NCBI GenBank assembly: GCA_027622665.1
Contig: JAQBYT010000001.1
Coordinates: 320,001 to 384,000, forward strand
Direction: 5' to 3'
DNA: 64,000 nucleotides
From: Verrucomicrobiota bacterium
GTDB taxonomy: Bacteria > Verrucomicrobiota > Verrucomicrobiia > Opitutales > Seribacteraceae
Shown: one piece after another, positions 38,448-45,229 of the stretch
Numbering within the stretch: position 1 is the stretch's first letter
How the letters are laid out: the number at the start of each line of letters is the position of its first letter
Notes under the pieces: generated by a model
Told to the model about the DNA's origin: nothing
Database searches by the model: none
The model's input: the letters and a program-made list of their open reading frames with translations, nothing else
Program-made: the position numbers and the translations under genes

Positions 38448-39657
38448 TTTAAAAGTCGGTTGAGGTTAGGAGCCAAAAGCTTTGGATAAGAATAGGGGTA
38501 GGAGAACATTAAGGTTACTTGAATAACGCTGCCTCACTGGCTCGCAAGCCGGATCGCTTGCAACACAACCAATTTTAATGAAGGGCGAACAGGTTAAAAA
38601 CAGTTGCAATACATTAACATTGGGCAAAGCTTGATGCCTCGATATGAAATTTCACAATAGAGTTCTTATTGGTCTAGTTTGCATGATGGGACTTTCCAGT
38701 TTTTGTATCGCAGAAACCTCGTGGCCTGACTACCGAGGTCCCAATCAAGACGGCTCGATCAACGGCCTGGATCTCCCGCTTCAATGGAGCGAGGGCAATC
38801 GGGTCTTATGGAAAACGGTCGTTCACGGTCGTGGTTGGTCGAGCCCCGTAGTTGCCGCTGGTCAAGTATGGCTCACGACCGCAACGCCAGATGGCCGGGA
38901 ACTGTATGTCCTTTGCGTCGACGCTAACTCGGGGGGAATTCTCCTCAATCGTAAGCTCTTTCAAATTGCCAAGCCTCAATTCGCACACGCCTTTAACTCT
39001 TACGCATCACCTTCTCCGCTGATCGACAGTTCGCATGTTTATGTTTCCTTTGGTTCACCCGGAACCGGCTTGCCTCGACCTAAAGACGCATAAGATCCTC
39101 TGGGAAAGAACGGATCTAGTATGCGATCATTTTCGTGGTGCGGGTTCATCTCCTTTCGTTTACGAAAATTTAATTATTCTAACCATGGACGGGGCAGACT
39201 ACCAATACTTGATCGCCCTCGACAAGCTCACGGGCAACACAGTTTGGCGAACAGACCGATCCACCGACTTCGGCGATCTCGATCCCAACACCGGCTTGCC
39301 CAAACGCGGTGGAGACTTCCGCAAGAGTTACGCCACTCCAGTCCTCGCGCAAGTTAAGGGACAAAGTCAACTCATCAGCCCCGGAGCCAAGGCTGTATTC
39401 GCGTATGACCCTCGCACCGGCAAAGAAATCTGGACTATTAGGTACGGCAATCATTCCAGCGCCGCTCGAACGCTTGTTGGCCATGACATGGCTTTCGTCA
39501 ATACTGGCTACGGAAAAGCCGAGCTTCTTGGTATTCGCATAGATGGCAAAGGCGATGTGACCGACACCCACGAAGGATTGATTTTGATAAAATTTAAGTC
39601 AAGTCATCCATACTAGATTAGATGTTGAAGTATAATATTAACTTTTAAATTCATTGT

Positions 39658-39888
39658 ATGAAAAGAAATAACACTTTATTACTTTTACTTTCTACTTTCA
39701 TCCTCATCAGCTTTGCACCTTCCATAGCTATAGCAAATGGTAGTTTGAGTAATGATAACGAGACTCATTATGATGATAGTGATACCTATGATAATTCTAA
39801 TGATACTGATGAAGATAATACAGAGTCGGAAGATATTGAATCAAACGGATCTGAGGTTGAAGAGAAAAGCGAATATGACAAAGAATAA
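39658..39888 (+). CDS. small secreted Asp/Glu/Ser/Thr/Asn-rich peptide
   Basis: Sec-type signal MKRNNTLLLLLSTFILISFAPSIAIA then ~50 aa acidic low-complexity region; TATAAT at 39631. Confidence 0.7.
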   Translation: MKRNNTLLLLLSTFILISFAPSIAIANGSLSNDNETHYDDSDTYDNSNDTDEDNTESEDIESNGSEVEEKSEYDKE

Positions 39889-39933
39889 TAATTTTCTTTC
39901 CATATTTTATCGAAATTCTAATTTGTTACAAAT

Positions 39934-41811
39934 ATGAAGAAGATACTTTATACCCAAAAAACTTTGGGCCCTGTCTCAGATTTAGAGCGTCACTTACCAG
40001 CAGAGTGGTGGAAAACATTATTTAATTCTCTTTATCTTAAAACAGATGGTGATGTAGTCGAAAATAATATTAATACTGAATTTGAGGTAGATCTTCTTAT
40101 TGATAAGTTAGATCTAAAAAAAGAAGATAATATTCTTGATTTATGTTGTGGTCAAGGAAGGCATTCTTTGGAGTTGGGTATGCGAGGCTTTAGCAATGTT
40201 TCTGGAATTGATCGATCTCGATATCTCATAAGATTGGCGCGTAAAAGAGCTCAGAAAAATGGTTTATTCATGCGTTTTTCTGAAGGAGATGCTCGTAAAA
40301 TAAGGCTACAAAGTGATACCCATGACTGCGTTTATTTAATGGGCAATTCTTTTGGTTATTTTGAGCAAGATGATGATGACGCCAATGTATTAAAATCAAT
40401 AAAAAGAATTCTTAAATCAAATGGCAAATTAGCTCTTGATATCACAAATGGAGAATTTTTGCGCAATAATTTTGAGCCTCGTTCATGGGAGTGGATTGAT
40501 CAAAATCAATTCGTGTGCCGTGAGCGCTCTCTTTCGGCTGATCAAGACAGAATTATATCTCGTGAAGTAATTGTTCATGCAGAAAAAGGAGTAATAACCG
40601 ATCAATTTTACGCTGAAAGACTTTATGATGAAAATCAGATTCAATCTTTATTGAAAACAGTTGGATTCGAAAATATTTCTGTAGAAAAAGACAACATAAT
40701 TGCCAGCTCAACTAGAGGTCATGATTTAGGCATGATGGCAAATAGGTTATTTATTACAGCCAAAGCTCCTGAGAAAATTATTCTACAAAAAATAACCGCT
40801 AAAAAGCAAGAAGTTTTGGTACTCCTTGGCGATCACACCTTACCGGACTCAATAAAGAAAAACGGAACTTTTAATGAAGAGGATATTGTCACCATCGACA
40901 AACTGAAGGATAATTTGTCTTTGCTGCCAAATCATAATTTCCAATATTTTGGTAATCATCAAAATTTACTCAAATATTTTCAAAATAATAGACCCCAATT
41001 TGTATTTAATTTATGTGATGAGGGATTTAAAAACGATGCTAATATGGAATTACATATTACAGCGATTTTGGAAATGTTTGGCGTGCCTTACAGTGGAAGC
41101 GGTCCATCTACTCTTGCTCTTTGTTACAATAAATCAATTGTTCGAGCGATTGCTAGTGATTTAGATATAGCAGTTCCTCAAGAAGCTTATTATGGTGACA
41201 TGGATCAAGCAGCATCCTTGGCATCCATATTTCCTGCCTTCTTAAAACCAAATTTTGGTGATAGCTCTATTGGCATTACTAGTGAGGCAGTAGTTCATAA
41301 CTCTAAGCAATTTATGAGTTATCTAGATAAATTGAAAAAAGAGTTTCCTAAAACTCCAATATTAATCCAAGAATTTTTGGAAGGAAATGAATATAGCGTT
41401 GGCATTATTGGCAATCCGGGAAATTACCAAATACTTCCAATTTTAGAGGTTAATTATAGTAATTTACCAAAAGATTTACCAAAAATATTGGGTTATGAGT
41501 CAAAATGGCTACCAGAATCTCCTTATTGGAAAAATATCAGCTATAAAGAAGCTACTATTGGTGAAGAAGATAGACGCCAACTAATCGATTACTCAACAAA
41601 GCTTTTTGAACGAACAGGTTGTCGAGATTATGCCAGATTTGATTTTCGTGCTGATAAAGATGGCATAATTAAACTTCTAGAAGTTAACCCTAATCCTGGA
41701 TGGTGCTGGGATGGTAAGCTAAATATTATGGCTGGATATCAAAACACACCTTATAAAGAATTGCTAGAAATGATTATAATGGCAGCAAAAGAAAGGCTCG
41801 GATTAGTTTAG
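39934..41811 (+). CDS. class I SAM methyltransferase fused to D-Ala-D-Ala-ligase-like ATP-grasp domain
   Basis: ILDLCCGQGRH, GIDRS, GDAR, MGNSFGYF; then LEMFGVPYSGS, FLKPNFGDSSIGI, IQEFLEGNEYSVG, DYARFDF, LEVNPNPG. Confidence 0.9.
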   Translation: MKKILYTQKTLGPVSDLERHLPAEWWKTLFNSLYLKTDGDVVENNINTEFEVDLLIDKLDLKKEDNILDLCCGQGRHSLELGMRGFSNVSGIDRSRYLIRLARKRAQKNGLFMRFSEGDARKIRLQSDTHDCVYLMGNSFGYFEQDDDDANVLKSIKRILKSNGKLALDITNGEFLRNNFEPRSWEWIDQNQFVCRERSLSADQDRIISREVIVHAEKGVITDQFYAERLYDENQIQSLLKTVGFENISVEKDNIIASSTRGHDLGMMANRLFITAKAPEKIILQKITAKKQEVLVLLGDHTLPDSIKKNGTFNEEDIVTIDKLKDNLSLLPNHNFQYFGNHQNLLKYFQNNRPQFVFNLCDEGFKNDANMELHITAILEMFGVPYSGSGPSTLALCYNKSIVRAIASDLDIAVPQEAYYGDMDQAASLASIFPAFLKPNFGDSSIGITSEAVVHNSKQFMSYLDKLKKEFPKTPILIQEFLEGNEYSVGIIGNPGNYQILPILEVNYSNLPKDLPKILGYESKWLPESPYWKNISYKEATIGEEDRRQLIDYSTKLFERTGCRDYARFDFRADKDGIIKLLEVNPNPGWCWDGKLNIMAGYQNTPYKELLEMIIMAAKERLGLV

Positions 41812-42218
41812 TCTATGTCAGAGGATAATTATCATATTCGCTCGATTGAAAGTATAGGATCGTTTATACTCCATTGTTTGCTTTTTTCTCTAATTTCGTA
41901 CTTCACGATGGCCACCTTTACACTGTAACTGATGGCGGAGTTTCCTCCTGTTATTCATCCCAAAACGGGCAAAGTCATCTGGCAGTCCCGCATCGGCGGA
42001 GAATATTCAGCATCGCTTCTTTTGTCCAATCGAAATATCTACTGTTTTGACCAAGATGGAACCTGTTTAGTTTTTCAAGCCAACCCAAAGGAGTTTATTC
42101 AGGTTTTTAAATCAGAATTAGACGATGGATTCATGTCCTCTCCTGCAGTTTTTTAAAAATCACTTATTTTGTGAACAAAGACACATCTTTATCGCATTCT
42201 AAAAGAAAGGTTAAATAA

Positions 42219-43031
42219 ATGAATCGATTCCTTTTGTTAATCTCCCTCTGTACAACATTTTTAGTAAGTTGCCAAGATGAGGAATCAACCGCTCGAAAAC
42301 CTTTGACTCCAAATGCGGAAACCATACTTAAATCGGAATACAACACATTGCTGGATAAATATTTCGCAGAAAGTTCAGACTTTAACGAAACCCTAAAGAA
42401 TCTAAAAACCGAAATGCTTGCTGATGCCGAGAGCAGGCAGGCAACAATCAAGGCATTGCAAGCCGATGGCACTCTAAAACAGACGGAAATTTCGTCGTTG
42501 AAAGACTCCCTTGCAGAGAACCAAGCTAAGCTTAACGACTGCAATGAGATTGGCGTTGCTCTTCGTGCTGAATTAAAAGGGGCGAAAATTCTTGGAGCAT
42601 CCGAATATGCAGACATCTTTGAACGCTCTGGAAATATTTCACACGAAGAATCTATCGGGAACTATGAAATTTTTCTAGAAAAATATCCCACTGGTTCAGT
42701 CGCTCAAAAAGCTCAATCAAGAATTAATCACCATAAGAGACAAATGGTTATTACAAAAAACCGAACATTTGCACGGCCGCTTCGCATTTGGCAAAGTCGT
42801 TTTCAGGCTGCCCGCCTGTCCTCCTCCACCCAAGCTCGCTCAGCTCTAGAATCCCTAATCGGACGAAAGGCTGACTCCGCCAAAAGAGGGTCCTCGTCCG
42901 AATTTAAGGAAATCACTTATTTTTGGCGAGATTACGCGTCCGACCTTTCGGGTGGATTTAGAGACCTCGTAGTCGAAACAGTAGACGACAAAATCACTAA
43001 GGTCTACTCTGGTGAAACGCTCAATAAGTAA
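42219..43031 (+). CDS. lipoprotein, coiled-coil, unknown function
   Basis: Lipobox LVSC; helical heptads; YEIFLEKYPTG motif. Confidence 0.8.
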   Translation: MNRFLLLISLCTTFLVSCQDEESTARKPLTPNAETILKSEYNTLLDKYFAESSDFNETLKNLKTEMLADAESRQATIKALQADGTLKQTEISSLKDSLAENQAKLNDCNEIGVALRAELKGAKILGASEYADIFERSGNISHEESIGNYEIFLEKYPTGSVAQKAQSRINHHKRQMVITKNRTFARPLRIWQSRFQAARLSSSTQARSALESLIGRKADSAKRGSSSEFKEITYFWRDYASDLSGGFRDLVVETVDDKITKVYSGETLNK

Positions 43032-44354: not shown

Positions 44355-45229
44355 ATTTGTTCCAACGCGGTTATCATAGAAAAAGAATGCAGTCCAATTC
44401 ATCGGCTTTATCATATTCTAGCCAAAAACGGATTTAGTGAGCTTTCGGCAAAGCAAAACAGAATTCCATTAGGGTTATGCAGGCGTAAGATAAATAAATG
44501 CTAATCGATAAAGTGCTGAATCCAACAAATCGGAAAATAGGTTCAGCCATCAGAAGACTTTTGGTGAATAGAAATCTATTGTGACCTTACCAAATAAGTT
44601 CGATGTTTGGTGCGGTTTCTCAATAGTTCTATCCGGGCATTAAATAGCACTTTAAAAGATGCGTCTTTAAAACAAGAAACATCACAATTACAAGGTAGTG
44701 ATTATATATACTTTTATCGTGATCGTTTTATAAAACACGACCTTATCAAAAGCAGAAGGATCTAGTCATTTTACCCTAAATTTATTACCGCACACTAAAA
44801 CAATAAAGGTTTTGTTACATCCGACAAATATAGAGTGACTAATAATTGCGATAATCGAATTAATATATACCGTTGAAAACCAGAGACGATTCCGCACCTA
44901 CCGTCGTTGGTAAATAACAAATGCATAAGCTTGCAAAAGCGATGACGGGAGAGTAAACATGCCCACCGTAAACAAGACTTTGTCAAAGACGCTTTTACTT
45001 ATTTTGTTCGACAACCATCCGAGTTGGTTCCACTACTCCCGACAACAGGCCGAACTCGCAGTCTTTAGACAAATAAAGGCTTATCGCTGGAAAAACTCTT
45101 CGGTGTGGTTCGCGTAACTGTCATTGGGTTTTCATTTGCTGCTTTTTCTGATTTGCATGTCTCAGCATTCAAGTAATTGTTTTGATCTTTCAAACCAATG
45201 ACCTTCCTCACTACATTCTCCTGATTCAC

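Follow-up and report, generated by a model that had tools for sequence, protein, structure and literature searches.

The window, that is, the whole 64,000-nt stretch of the Verrucomicrobiota contig that was analysed, contains a β-propeller gene in which a short segment has been exchanged for foreign DNA. The features of the locus are as follows:

38644..39571, + strand: host PQQ-type β-propeller gene, 5′ part (Pfam PQQ_2; signal peptide, about 309 codons)
39572..41897, no strand: foreign block of 2326 nt with 33% GC, in place of 44 nt of host-gene sequence
39658..39888, + strand: acidic protein of 76 aa with 20 D/E, a hydrophobic, signal-like N-terminus and no Pfam family
39934..41811, + strand: intact SAM methyltransferase/Ddl-like ATP-grasp fusion, 625 aa
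40012..40773, + strand: methyltransferase domain of the amine N-methyltransferase type, aa 27–280
40801..41805, + strand: ATP-grasp ligase domain, aa 290–624
41815..41897, + strand: EamA/DMT transporter stub of the donor, truncated at the junction after ~27 of 302 codons
41898..42220, + strand: host propeller gene, 3′ remnant, carrying a frameshift near 41951 and stop codons at 42154 and 42172

The block has a GC content of 0.332 compared with 0.475 for the window, and a GC3 of 0.24 compared with 0.51–0.54 in two host genes. It is 92.4% identical over 2334 nt to a Rickettsiales locus (L001) and has no match in 75/75 other genomes of the host family. Both edges, at 39572 and 41897, are placed to ±1 base, and an empty-site joint found in run contigs defines the 44 nt replaced. 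Relative to the donor-like locus the block ends are arbitrary, the right one falling inside the EamA gene. ORFs, a repeat search and comparison of the junctions revealed no integrase, transposase, target-site duplication or terminal repeats at the block, and no repeat pairs its two ends. None of 52 pattern matches in viral contigs was a relative of the block, plasmids gave no match at E ≤ 1e-30, and a promoter/terminator scan was uninformative, with 13 sites where 11.5 were expected. The block is likely a piece of chromosome from a Rickettsiales-like donor, which probably entered via illegitimate recombination. A preliminary description of the locus had reported a foreign, AT-rich 2.3-kb block with two co-oriented full-length ORFs 45 nt apart; GC, GC3, identity to L001 and the junctions bear this out, and both ORFs lie where it placed them. 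It had missed the truncated third gene, and its term "cassette" does not hold for what is instead an arbitrary cut-out of a donor chromosome. Its insertion into a host gene stands, though not as a simple insertion, since 44 host nucleotides were replaced.

Both junctions are crossed by one contig in each of two runs from different studies, X2 (39212–42293) and X9 (38902–42600); in X4 each junction is crossed, on separate contigs, and in X11 the left junction is crossed. The abrupt junctions would suit an assembly chimera, a possibility the preliminary description had raised, and the best DNA run possibly derives from the source sample itself. The junction-crossing contigs come from independent seawater runs, however, and the X9 allele, differing at 19 sites, has the same block ends, leaving a chimera virtually no chance; we consider it ruled out. 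Filled and empty alleles occur together in two seawater runs, and in X11 the depth of the empty allele is 36.6 compared with 3–8 for the filled one. The RNA runs X15–X20 share 7–26% of the sampled words, an overlap that does not amount to evidence of expression.

The host 5′ frame continues into the insert and ends at a stop at 39616. Six genomes of the same genus carry the propeller gene as an intact ORF of 428–452 aa, and these intact genes have none of the 3′ lesions (the 41951 frameshift and the 42154 and 42172 stops). The junction-spanning contig of X2 has all of these 3′ lesions, that of X9 is without the 42154 stop. Within the 5′ part, none of the four runs compared has the extra base at 39067, which is thus specific to this assembly or its strain.

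Comparison of the window allele with the X9 insertion allele yielded 0 replacement and 6 silent changes in the fusion against 7 replacement and 1 silent change in the host fragments (Fisher p = 0.005), counts that are small and derive from assembled consensus contigs. With about 21% of sites being silent, 6/6 silent changes have p = 8e-5. In the X2 allele, the fusion carries two replacement changes, one of them at the near-invariant F245; with these included, the Fisher p is 0.04 and 6/8 changes are silent (p = 0.0015). Relative to L001, the dN/dS of the fusion is 0.08. Both allele changes in the peptide gene alter the protein. Because the changes in the fusion are all silent and those in the host fragments mostly replacements, the window/X9 comparison points to the fusion having been kept by selection after transfer. 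This contrast between silent changes in the fusion and replacement changes in the broken host gene is the new element here; together with dN/dS, it agrees with the earlier proposal of selection on an intact fusion beside a decaying host gene. As far as the host alone is concerned, the insert might instead be a neutral or mildly harmful passenger whose erosion is still to come. Coexistence with the empty allele, which is the deeper one in X11, the replacement changes in X2, the destruction of the host gene and the purely predicted expression of the insert in the host would all be consistent with a passenger, but the predominance of silent changes in the fusion, with or without X2, next to decaying host fragments makes it unlikely.

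A homologue search with the peptide gave one match among two candidates, which is its own allele P0121. At the DNA level the peptide gene is matched in 1/80 genome loci, the donor-like L001, where two acidic ORFs lie in tandem and the homologue is the second one; L002, with an enzyme 84% identical, has no such acidic ORF. Within 3 kb of the fusion, 3/160 loci have acidic mini-ORFs whose products look secreted. In L006 and L015, members of the same broad clade, different small ORFs for secreted acidic products follow downstream; the L015 ORF is related to that of L006 and unrelated to the peptide. The graspetide leader motifs Phhx(1,2)h and GG are absent from the peptide, although the former occurs in no more than about half of the precursors known. 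A signal peptide would carry the peptide away from cytoplasmic ATP and SAM. The preliminary description had proposed the peptide as a partner or substrate, as in a RiPP system in which the acidic neighbour is crosslinked and methylated by the enzyme. The same adjacency and co-orientation in L001, the downstream ORFs of L006 and L015 and the D/E/S/T-rich composition of the peptide would fit such a system. It is made highly improbable by the 79/80 loci without a DNA match and the lack of an equivalent in L002, by the unrelated L015 ORF, the missing leader motifs, the replacement changes and the implied export, and by the absence of any PIMT-type family among 14 Pfam matches at E ≤ 0.01. A RiPP partner is thus unlikely after the 160-locus neighbourhoods, homologue search, motif check and allele changes; the peptide is likely a passenger, and the locus is not a new RiPP system.

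The fusion itself belongs to a widespread family, with 378 genome matches, identities of 55–96% across many phyla and a member in the eukaryote Rozella allomycis. Literature searches found no published description of this family; the enzymes of a paper on a thiohistidine dipeptide (PMC13674229) differ from it. Pfam recognizes a class I methyltransferase (67–164) and Dala_Dala_lig_C (429–615), and 4/33 scanned representatives carry SET and GNAT domains in fusion with domains of the family. The neighbours are mostly lineage-specific housekeeping genes. The next gene downstream, on the same strand, encodes an M32 carboxypeptidase in 14/80 genome loci (15/160 loci in all). All tree members with this link (13/13) fall into one clade (support 0.74), which has five members without M32; being confined to one clade, the link represents one event. 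Of five donor-clade genomes, three, including that of L001, yielded no M32; all may be incomplete. A GNAT-deacetylase is located divergently upstream of the fusion in 3/80 loci, and a full GNAT-deacetylase is encoded in 8/50 fusion-bearing genomes (50 of the 80 loci taken) and in 0 small donor-clade genomes. As to the GNAT and KamA genes whose recurrence the preliminary description had asked about, GNAT adjacency is found in these few loci, an obligate GNAT-deacetylase partner is ruled out by the 8/50 genomes, and KamA is not seen among 50 annotated neighbour proteins, a chosen subset of 1075 ORFs. AsnO is likewise missing among these 50, the recurrent neighbours annotated include no cell-wall genes, and the locus neighbourhoods revealed no conserved target gene. 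In 12 related loci, which are close kin, the downstream gene is one that we take to be ornithine-decarboxylase-like.

In the methyltransferase domain, DLCCG.GRH and G137-N138-S-F are invariant, with N138 present in 71/71 sequences. Position 171, the site of GSMT Arg167, is V/T/A/M/S in 69/71, and Arg is not among the five commonest states. The score against the glycine/sarcosine N-methyltransferase family NF051855 is 50.2 at a cut-off of 350. Fold neighbours include CcbJ, YunM, DesVI, CypM, CgnL and GSMT, in a list that also holds C-, O- and uncharacterised methyltransferases. The best sequence match (E 6e-25, 28% identity) is NmbA, a bacillithiol N-methyltransferase that methylates an amide-linked cysteine (PDB 9RI2; bioRxiv 10.1101/2025.07.06.663066). 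NmbA proteins are defined by similar length, >80% coverage and >25% identity to CT1040 (bioRxiv 10.1101/2025.07.06.663066); the fusion reaches its 28% over the domain, but has 625 aa compared with 266.

In the ligase domain, all ATP-grasp motifs quoted in the preliminary description are present, and the ATP/metal residues K400, K438, R568, D570, E583 and N585 are invariant. Two motifs are family-specific, N-L-C-D-E-G and P-G-W-C-W-D-G-K, and C361, D362, E363, G364, D593, G594 and K595 are invariant in 71/71. The best folds are Ddl (Z 27.4; rmsd 2.8 Å, 298 aligned residues, 20% identity), compared with ArgX (21.1) and RimK (20.2). Ddl thus ranks above RimK/LysX; among the 50 fold matches listed no graspetide synthetase was recognised, although kinship may still exist, and ESM Atlas matches comprise Ddl-like clusters only. 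The scores miss the Ddl cut-offs (TIGR01205, 99.9 vs 245.65; NF002378, 101.4 vs 243). In Ddl, the HG..GEDG motif and the second-site Ser have substrate-motif roles. Candidates for the equivalent of the first-site glutamate of Ddl are D305, E316 and D317, from an N-terminal profile alignment to the host Ddl that is poor. Because the second-site Ser/Leu of Ddl is replaced by G594/K595, the acceptor may not be an α-amino acid. The altered substrate motifs also argue, as the preliminary description had, that the enzyme is not a cell-wall Ddl. An alternative peptidoglycan ligase, making D-Ala-D-X or an N-methylated variant, would be in line with Ddl and Van as nearest solved folds and with the alignment of K595 to the Arg of the VanA motif. 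Such a role is very improbable for a protein that scores far under every Ddl/Van cut-off, occurs in Rozella and lacks cell-wall genes among its annotated recurrent neighbours, in a host that already has a canonical Ddl, with HG..GEDG, on another contig.

The reading we prefer, and to which we give roughly an even chance, is that a Rickettsiales-like block replaced 44 host nucleotides and that the fusion alone makes a small, N-methylated dipeptide-type metabolite, with the peptide as a passenger. The ATP-grasp domain would phosphorylate the carboxylate of one amino acid and couple the activated amino acid to the amino group of another small molecule; in the resulting amide, the free N-terminal amine would then be methylated by the SAM domain. 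Ligation is placed before methylation because the amine-positioning Asn of glycine/sarcosine methyltransferase is kept and its carboxylate-clamping Arg is lost; the Arg is also missing in NmbA, whose substrate is an amide-linked cysteine. Recycling of the N-capped dipeptide would start at the C-terminus and would account for the M32 neighbour in one clade. Its physiological role, as a stress or osmotic protectant, is a guess, and expression in the host is predicted to arise perhaps by read-through from a co-oriented host promoter. Both domains are intact in one ORF, in keeping with the single "methylate and ligate" polypeptide envisaged earlier, and of the two substrates then offered a small amino-acid metabolite fits best. 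As product class, an N-methylated dipeptide is our best guess, made by analogy.

The same transfer could have delivered an enzyme for an N-methylated amino-acyl-polyamine or other amine conjugate. The divergent GNAT-deacetylase, the decarboxylase-like neighbour, the SET and GNAT fusions and the loss of the Ddl second-site Ser beside an invariant D593 are consistent with such a product. It is nevertheless rather unlikely, given the rarity of the full GNAT-deacetylase, the close kinship of the decarboxylase-neighbour loci and the invariant K595 at the VanA Arg position, which fits an acid acceptor; the M32 neighbour also argues against it, since a carboxypeptidase requires a free C-terminal carboxylate. 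Read differently, the M32 link could mark an eraser of a protein tag, the enzyme adding a C-terminal residue in a RimK-like manner and methylating, and the SET fusions and the N-terminal peptide methyltransferases CypM, YunM and CgnL among the fold neighbours would agree with tagging. We regard it as quite improbable, because the fold is nearer Ddl than RimK/LysX, no conserved target gene lies nearby and the fusion is apparently selected in a distant host, whose proteins would offer a different target.

The locus represents a natural gain-of-function case: the enzyme came without transporter or partner. Apparent purifying selection on an enzyme without partners, in a host family otherwise lacking the fusion, suggests that it acts alone on ordinary metabolites, and one-gene expression with metabolomics should then show the product. 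Since the family is large, strongly conserved and without a description found in the literature, the product is probably an unrecognised common metabolite. Tentatively, and with some doubt, we see here a one-gene pathway to a new N-methylated dipeptide, distributed over many phyla and some eukaryotes, caught moving without a mobile element and destroying a host gene in the process, already selected, and with carriers and non-carriers in the same water. The locus also shows, at base resolution, a marine bacterium gaining a gene through recombination that involved no mobile element.

PMC12359135 cites Hulter and Wackernagel 2008 on double illegitimate recombination. As in that process, a short host stretch was swapped for foreign DNA without long homology or a mobile element; unlike in that work, the event was natural and crossed distant lineages, with a mechanism deduced from junctions only. 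Graspetide systems place an ATP-grasp enzyme beside a small D/E/S/T-rich ORF, with methyltransferases in some loci (PMC8939145); the locus shares this adjacency, but its ligase is of the Ddl type, and it lacks both a conserved precursor and a leader motif. In GSMT (5gwx), Asn134 binds the amine and Arg167 the carboxylate (PMC5146677). The fusion shares the G-N-S-F loop and the amine-binding Asn (Asn134 = N138), whereas Arg167 and His138 are lost and the score is far under the family cut-off. With NmbA it shares the SFGYF motif, the β-cap and the lack of Arg at the GSMT carboxylate position; NmbA differs in being a stand-alone protein of 266 aa from bacillithiol producers, with Ser at the N138 equivalent. 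The ligase resembles DdlA (8evv), DdlB (2dln) and VanA (1e4e) in its three-domain ATP-grasp fold and its ATP/metal/oxyanion residues. Unlike Ddl/Van, the fusion carries a methyltransferase, has N-L-C-D-E-G in place of L-H-G..G-E-D-G and G594-K595 at the Ser-Leu/Ser-Arg second site, scores far under the family cut-offs and is also found in a eukaryote. Ngg, too, has an ATP-grasp domain. It N-acetylates and ligates glutamine, within an operon that includes a peptidase (NAGGN synthesis, asnO-ngg-peptidase; PMC8070244). Its cap is acetyl (GNAT), not methyl, whereas the fusion has no GNAT domain and no AsnO partner nearby, and the peptidase next to it is M32, in one clade only. The likeness to Ngg is a proposed one, in mode of action only: one protein would cap an N-terminus and form a peptide bond, with a peptidase encoded nearby.

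The fusion of a SAM methyltransferase with a Ddl-like ATP-grasp ligase is a common but uncharacterised enzyme that has reached this host by a recent, polymorphic, element-free transfer. Over the foreign block GC content drops from ~0.52 to 0.33, and the block contains two open reading frames (window positions):

39658-39888, acidic peptide ORF, 76 aa
39934-41811, fusion ORF, 625 aa

The preliminary description had both ORFs, the GC fall and the two domains right: the larger ORF combines a SAM methyltransferase domain of class I with Dala_Dala_lig_C, and its AlphaFold model (71 sequences, mean pLDDT 82.8) has two domains at residues 27-280 and 290-624. The fusion gene is single copy in the host genome, and the one further match falls on contig C17, at the canonical Ddl of the host. 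Another low-GC stretch (~35%, window 44400-45000) has no ORF above ~65 codons, and the host genome contains 17 further low-GC patches (on C4, C5, C13, C39, C48, C49, C58 and C65); judged by eye, several carry sugar-modifying genes and one on C5 an integrase-like gene with secreted proteins.

Among species genomes, the closest relative of the fusion is encoded at a Rickettsiales locus (L001, 96% amino-acid identity), which matches window 39573-41897 at 92.4% nucleotide identity, with no match beyond those ends, and sits in uniformly AT-rich sequence. There, acidic ORFs of 107 and 79 aa, both with hydrophobic N-termini, lie upstream of the fusion and a 302-aa EamA transporter downstream. Of these genes, the window has the fusion and the second acidic ORF but not the first, and EamA is cut off after ~27 codons; the block, described earlier as a foreign cassette, is foreign, but it is therefore no cassette but an arbitrary cut-out that ends inside the EamA gene. 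Just upstream of the acidic ORFs, restriction-modification-like genes (L001:1-5017; adenine methyltransferase and helicase, judged by eye) suggest a variable region in the donor-like genome.

The empty site was found in six of eight same-genus genomes, where the match reaches both junctions with 44 nt between them and the propeller gene that the block interrupts in the host forms a single ORF (428-452 aa); the other two gave partial matches only. The fusion was not found in any of the 75 other host-family genomes searched, many of which are incomplete. The block lacks terminal repeats, a duplicated target and a recombinase, its junctions have a few bases at most in common, and no relatives were found among viral contigs or plasmids. 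We infer replacement by double illegitimate recombination, a mechanism cited in PMC12359135.

The insertion is real and polymorphic. Part of the window is contained in 20 of the 24 sequencing runs listed, and at least half of its words in 14; one run may be the source sample. Alleles were compared in contigs of four runs from four studies (X2, X4, X9 and X11). Single contigs of X2 and X9 each span both junctions, so that the assembly chimera considered earlier was not borne out; separate contigs cross the two junctions in X4, the left junction is crossed in X11, and both X4 and X11 also contain the empty allele. An extra base at window 39067, which frameshifts the 5′ part of the host gene, is missing in all four runs and is a private mutation or assembly error. 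Compared with the window, the empty-site allele of X4 has 13 differences in ~970 nt on the left and 50 in ~394 nt on the right (window 41897-42293), a contrast suggesting that the insert, with its right flank, was later carried from one strain to another by homologous recombination.

Selection on the intact fusion beside a decayed host gene had been proposed, and the X9 contig agrees with it. Its 19 differences from the window comprise six in the fusion (all silent), two in the peptide (both protein-altering), nine in the host fragments (seven protein-altering, with two in the same codon and one a stop; one silent; one unclassified at the frameshift), one intergenic and one in the next gene. 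Silent and replacement changes in fusion and host fragments differ in this allele (Fisher p 0.005). However, both X2 differences in the fusion are replacements, F245I at a near-invariant site and Y420F, and including them gives p 0.04; all these counts are small and come from consensus contigs. The transfer appears to carry signs of selection on the fusion. The dN/dS of 0.08 against L001 mostly reflects time spent in the donor lineage.

Fusion relatives are encoded by 378 of 381 candidate stretches from species genomes and 732 of 822 from metagenomes, of which 80 loci each were kept. A profile search of 50%-identity representatives recovered more distant full fusions, including one from Rozella allomycis, and ligase-only forms; a domain scan of 33 representatives found three fusions with SET and one with GNAT. 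P0159, P0187 and P0264 combine SET with either the methyltransferase or the ligase domain of the family, and their three arrangements are independent. Five Berkiella-like gammaproteobacterial loci (L034, L039, L050, L054, L057) have a second, ligase-only paralogue downstream of the fusion, and the WCWDGK acceptor-site motif is lost in the four aligned. Our literature search, thin on subscription journals, found no published description of the fusion, which earlier bioinformatic work may nevertheless have mentioned; PMC13674229 was set aside because it deals with other enzymes.

Most neighbours are housekeeping genes common to single lineages. In 14 of the 80 genome loci (15 of 160 overall), the next gene downstream is a co-oriented M32 carboxypeptidase. 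A tree of 73 proteins, which omits eight partial loci (one M32-linked), places every one of the 13 M32-linked members in a single clade (support 0.74). Nitrospinota occur in that clade alongside Beta- and Gammaproteobacteria, and five of its members have no M32; the host's own M32 gene lies away from the fusion. Whether GNAT genes recur beside the fusion had been put forward as a check; a GNAT-deacetylase, whole in 8 of 50 genomes, lies upstream in divergent orientation at 3 of 80 loci. There (L012:3971-5692, L014, L035) the GNAT acetyltransferase shares one chain with a histone-deacetylase-family domain, writer and eraser together.

The fusion had also been read as modifying the adjacent peptide, as in a RiPP pathway, or making a small amino-acid metabolite. 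A DNA-level match to the peptide gene exists in L001 only. Within 3 kb of the fusion (73 loci per set having enough upstream DNA), three of the 80 genome loci (L001, L006, L015) and none of the 80 metagenome loci contain an acidic ORF (35-140 aa) whose N-terminus is hydrophobic, and there is no such ORF near the next closest enzyme (L002); the L015 ORF is homologous to that of L006 and unrelated to the window peptide. The L015 and L006 products (L015:7955-8173, L006:9916-10170) are small, acidic and secreted, and each has two cysteines; in these two small, AT-rich genomes their genes follow the fusion at distances of 88 nt and ~2 kb. With no precursor conserved beside the fusion, and the graspetide leader motifs set out in PMC8939145 missing from the peptide, peptide modification is very improbable. 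The metabolite half of the proposal fares better: the fusion is best read as a putative single-gene synthase whose product would be an N-methylated, dipeptide-type metabolite. That it makes a polyamine conjugate is unlikely, and that it tags proteins is less likely still.

The ligase folds most like Ddl enzymes, with Z 27.4 against 21.1 for ArgX, 20.4 for LysX, 20.2 for RimK and 19.7 for an L-amino-acid ligase, and its ATP and metal residues are invariant in the family. It scores far under all Ddl/Van cut-offs, and its substrate loops, N-L-C-D-E-G and P-G-W-C-W-D-G-K (aligned to VanA P-G-F-T-S-Y-S-R), are nearly invariant and family-specific, in keeping with the earlier view that it is unlikely to be a cell-wall D-Ala-D-Ala ligase.

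For the methyltransferase, the METHYLTRANSFERASE domain has as its top match PDB 9RI2, the bacillithiol N-methyltransferase NmbA, which, according to bioRxiv 10.1101/2025.07.06.663066, methylates an amide-linked cysteine at its amine but does not act on glycine. GSMT binds the substrate amine by Asn134 and the carboxylate by Arg167, as stated in PMC5146677. By alignment, the fusion has the amine-binding Asn in common with GSMT (N138, kept in 71 of 71), whereas position 171, which corresponds to Arg167, holds V, T, A, M or S in 69 of the 71. The acceptor would then be an amine with no alpha-carboxylate free at that site, which would put ligation before methylation. In its way of working, the candidate synthase would resemble Ngg, an enzyme that both acetylates glutamine and ligates it and whose gene stands with that of a peptidase (PMC8070244), although the fusion is not a member of the Ngg family.
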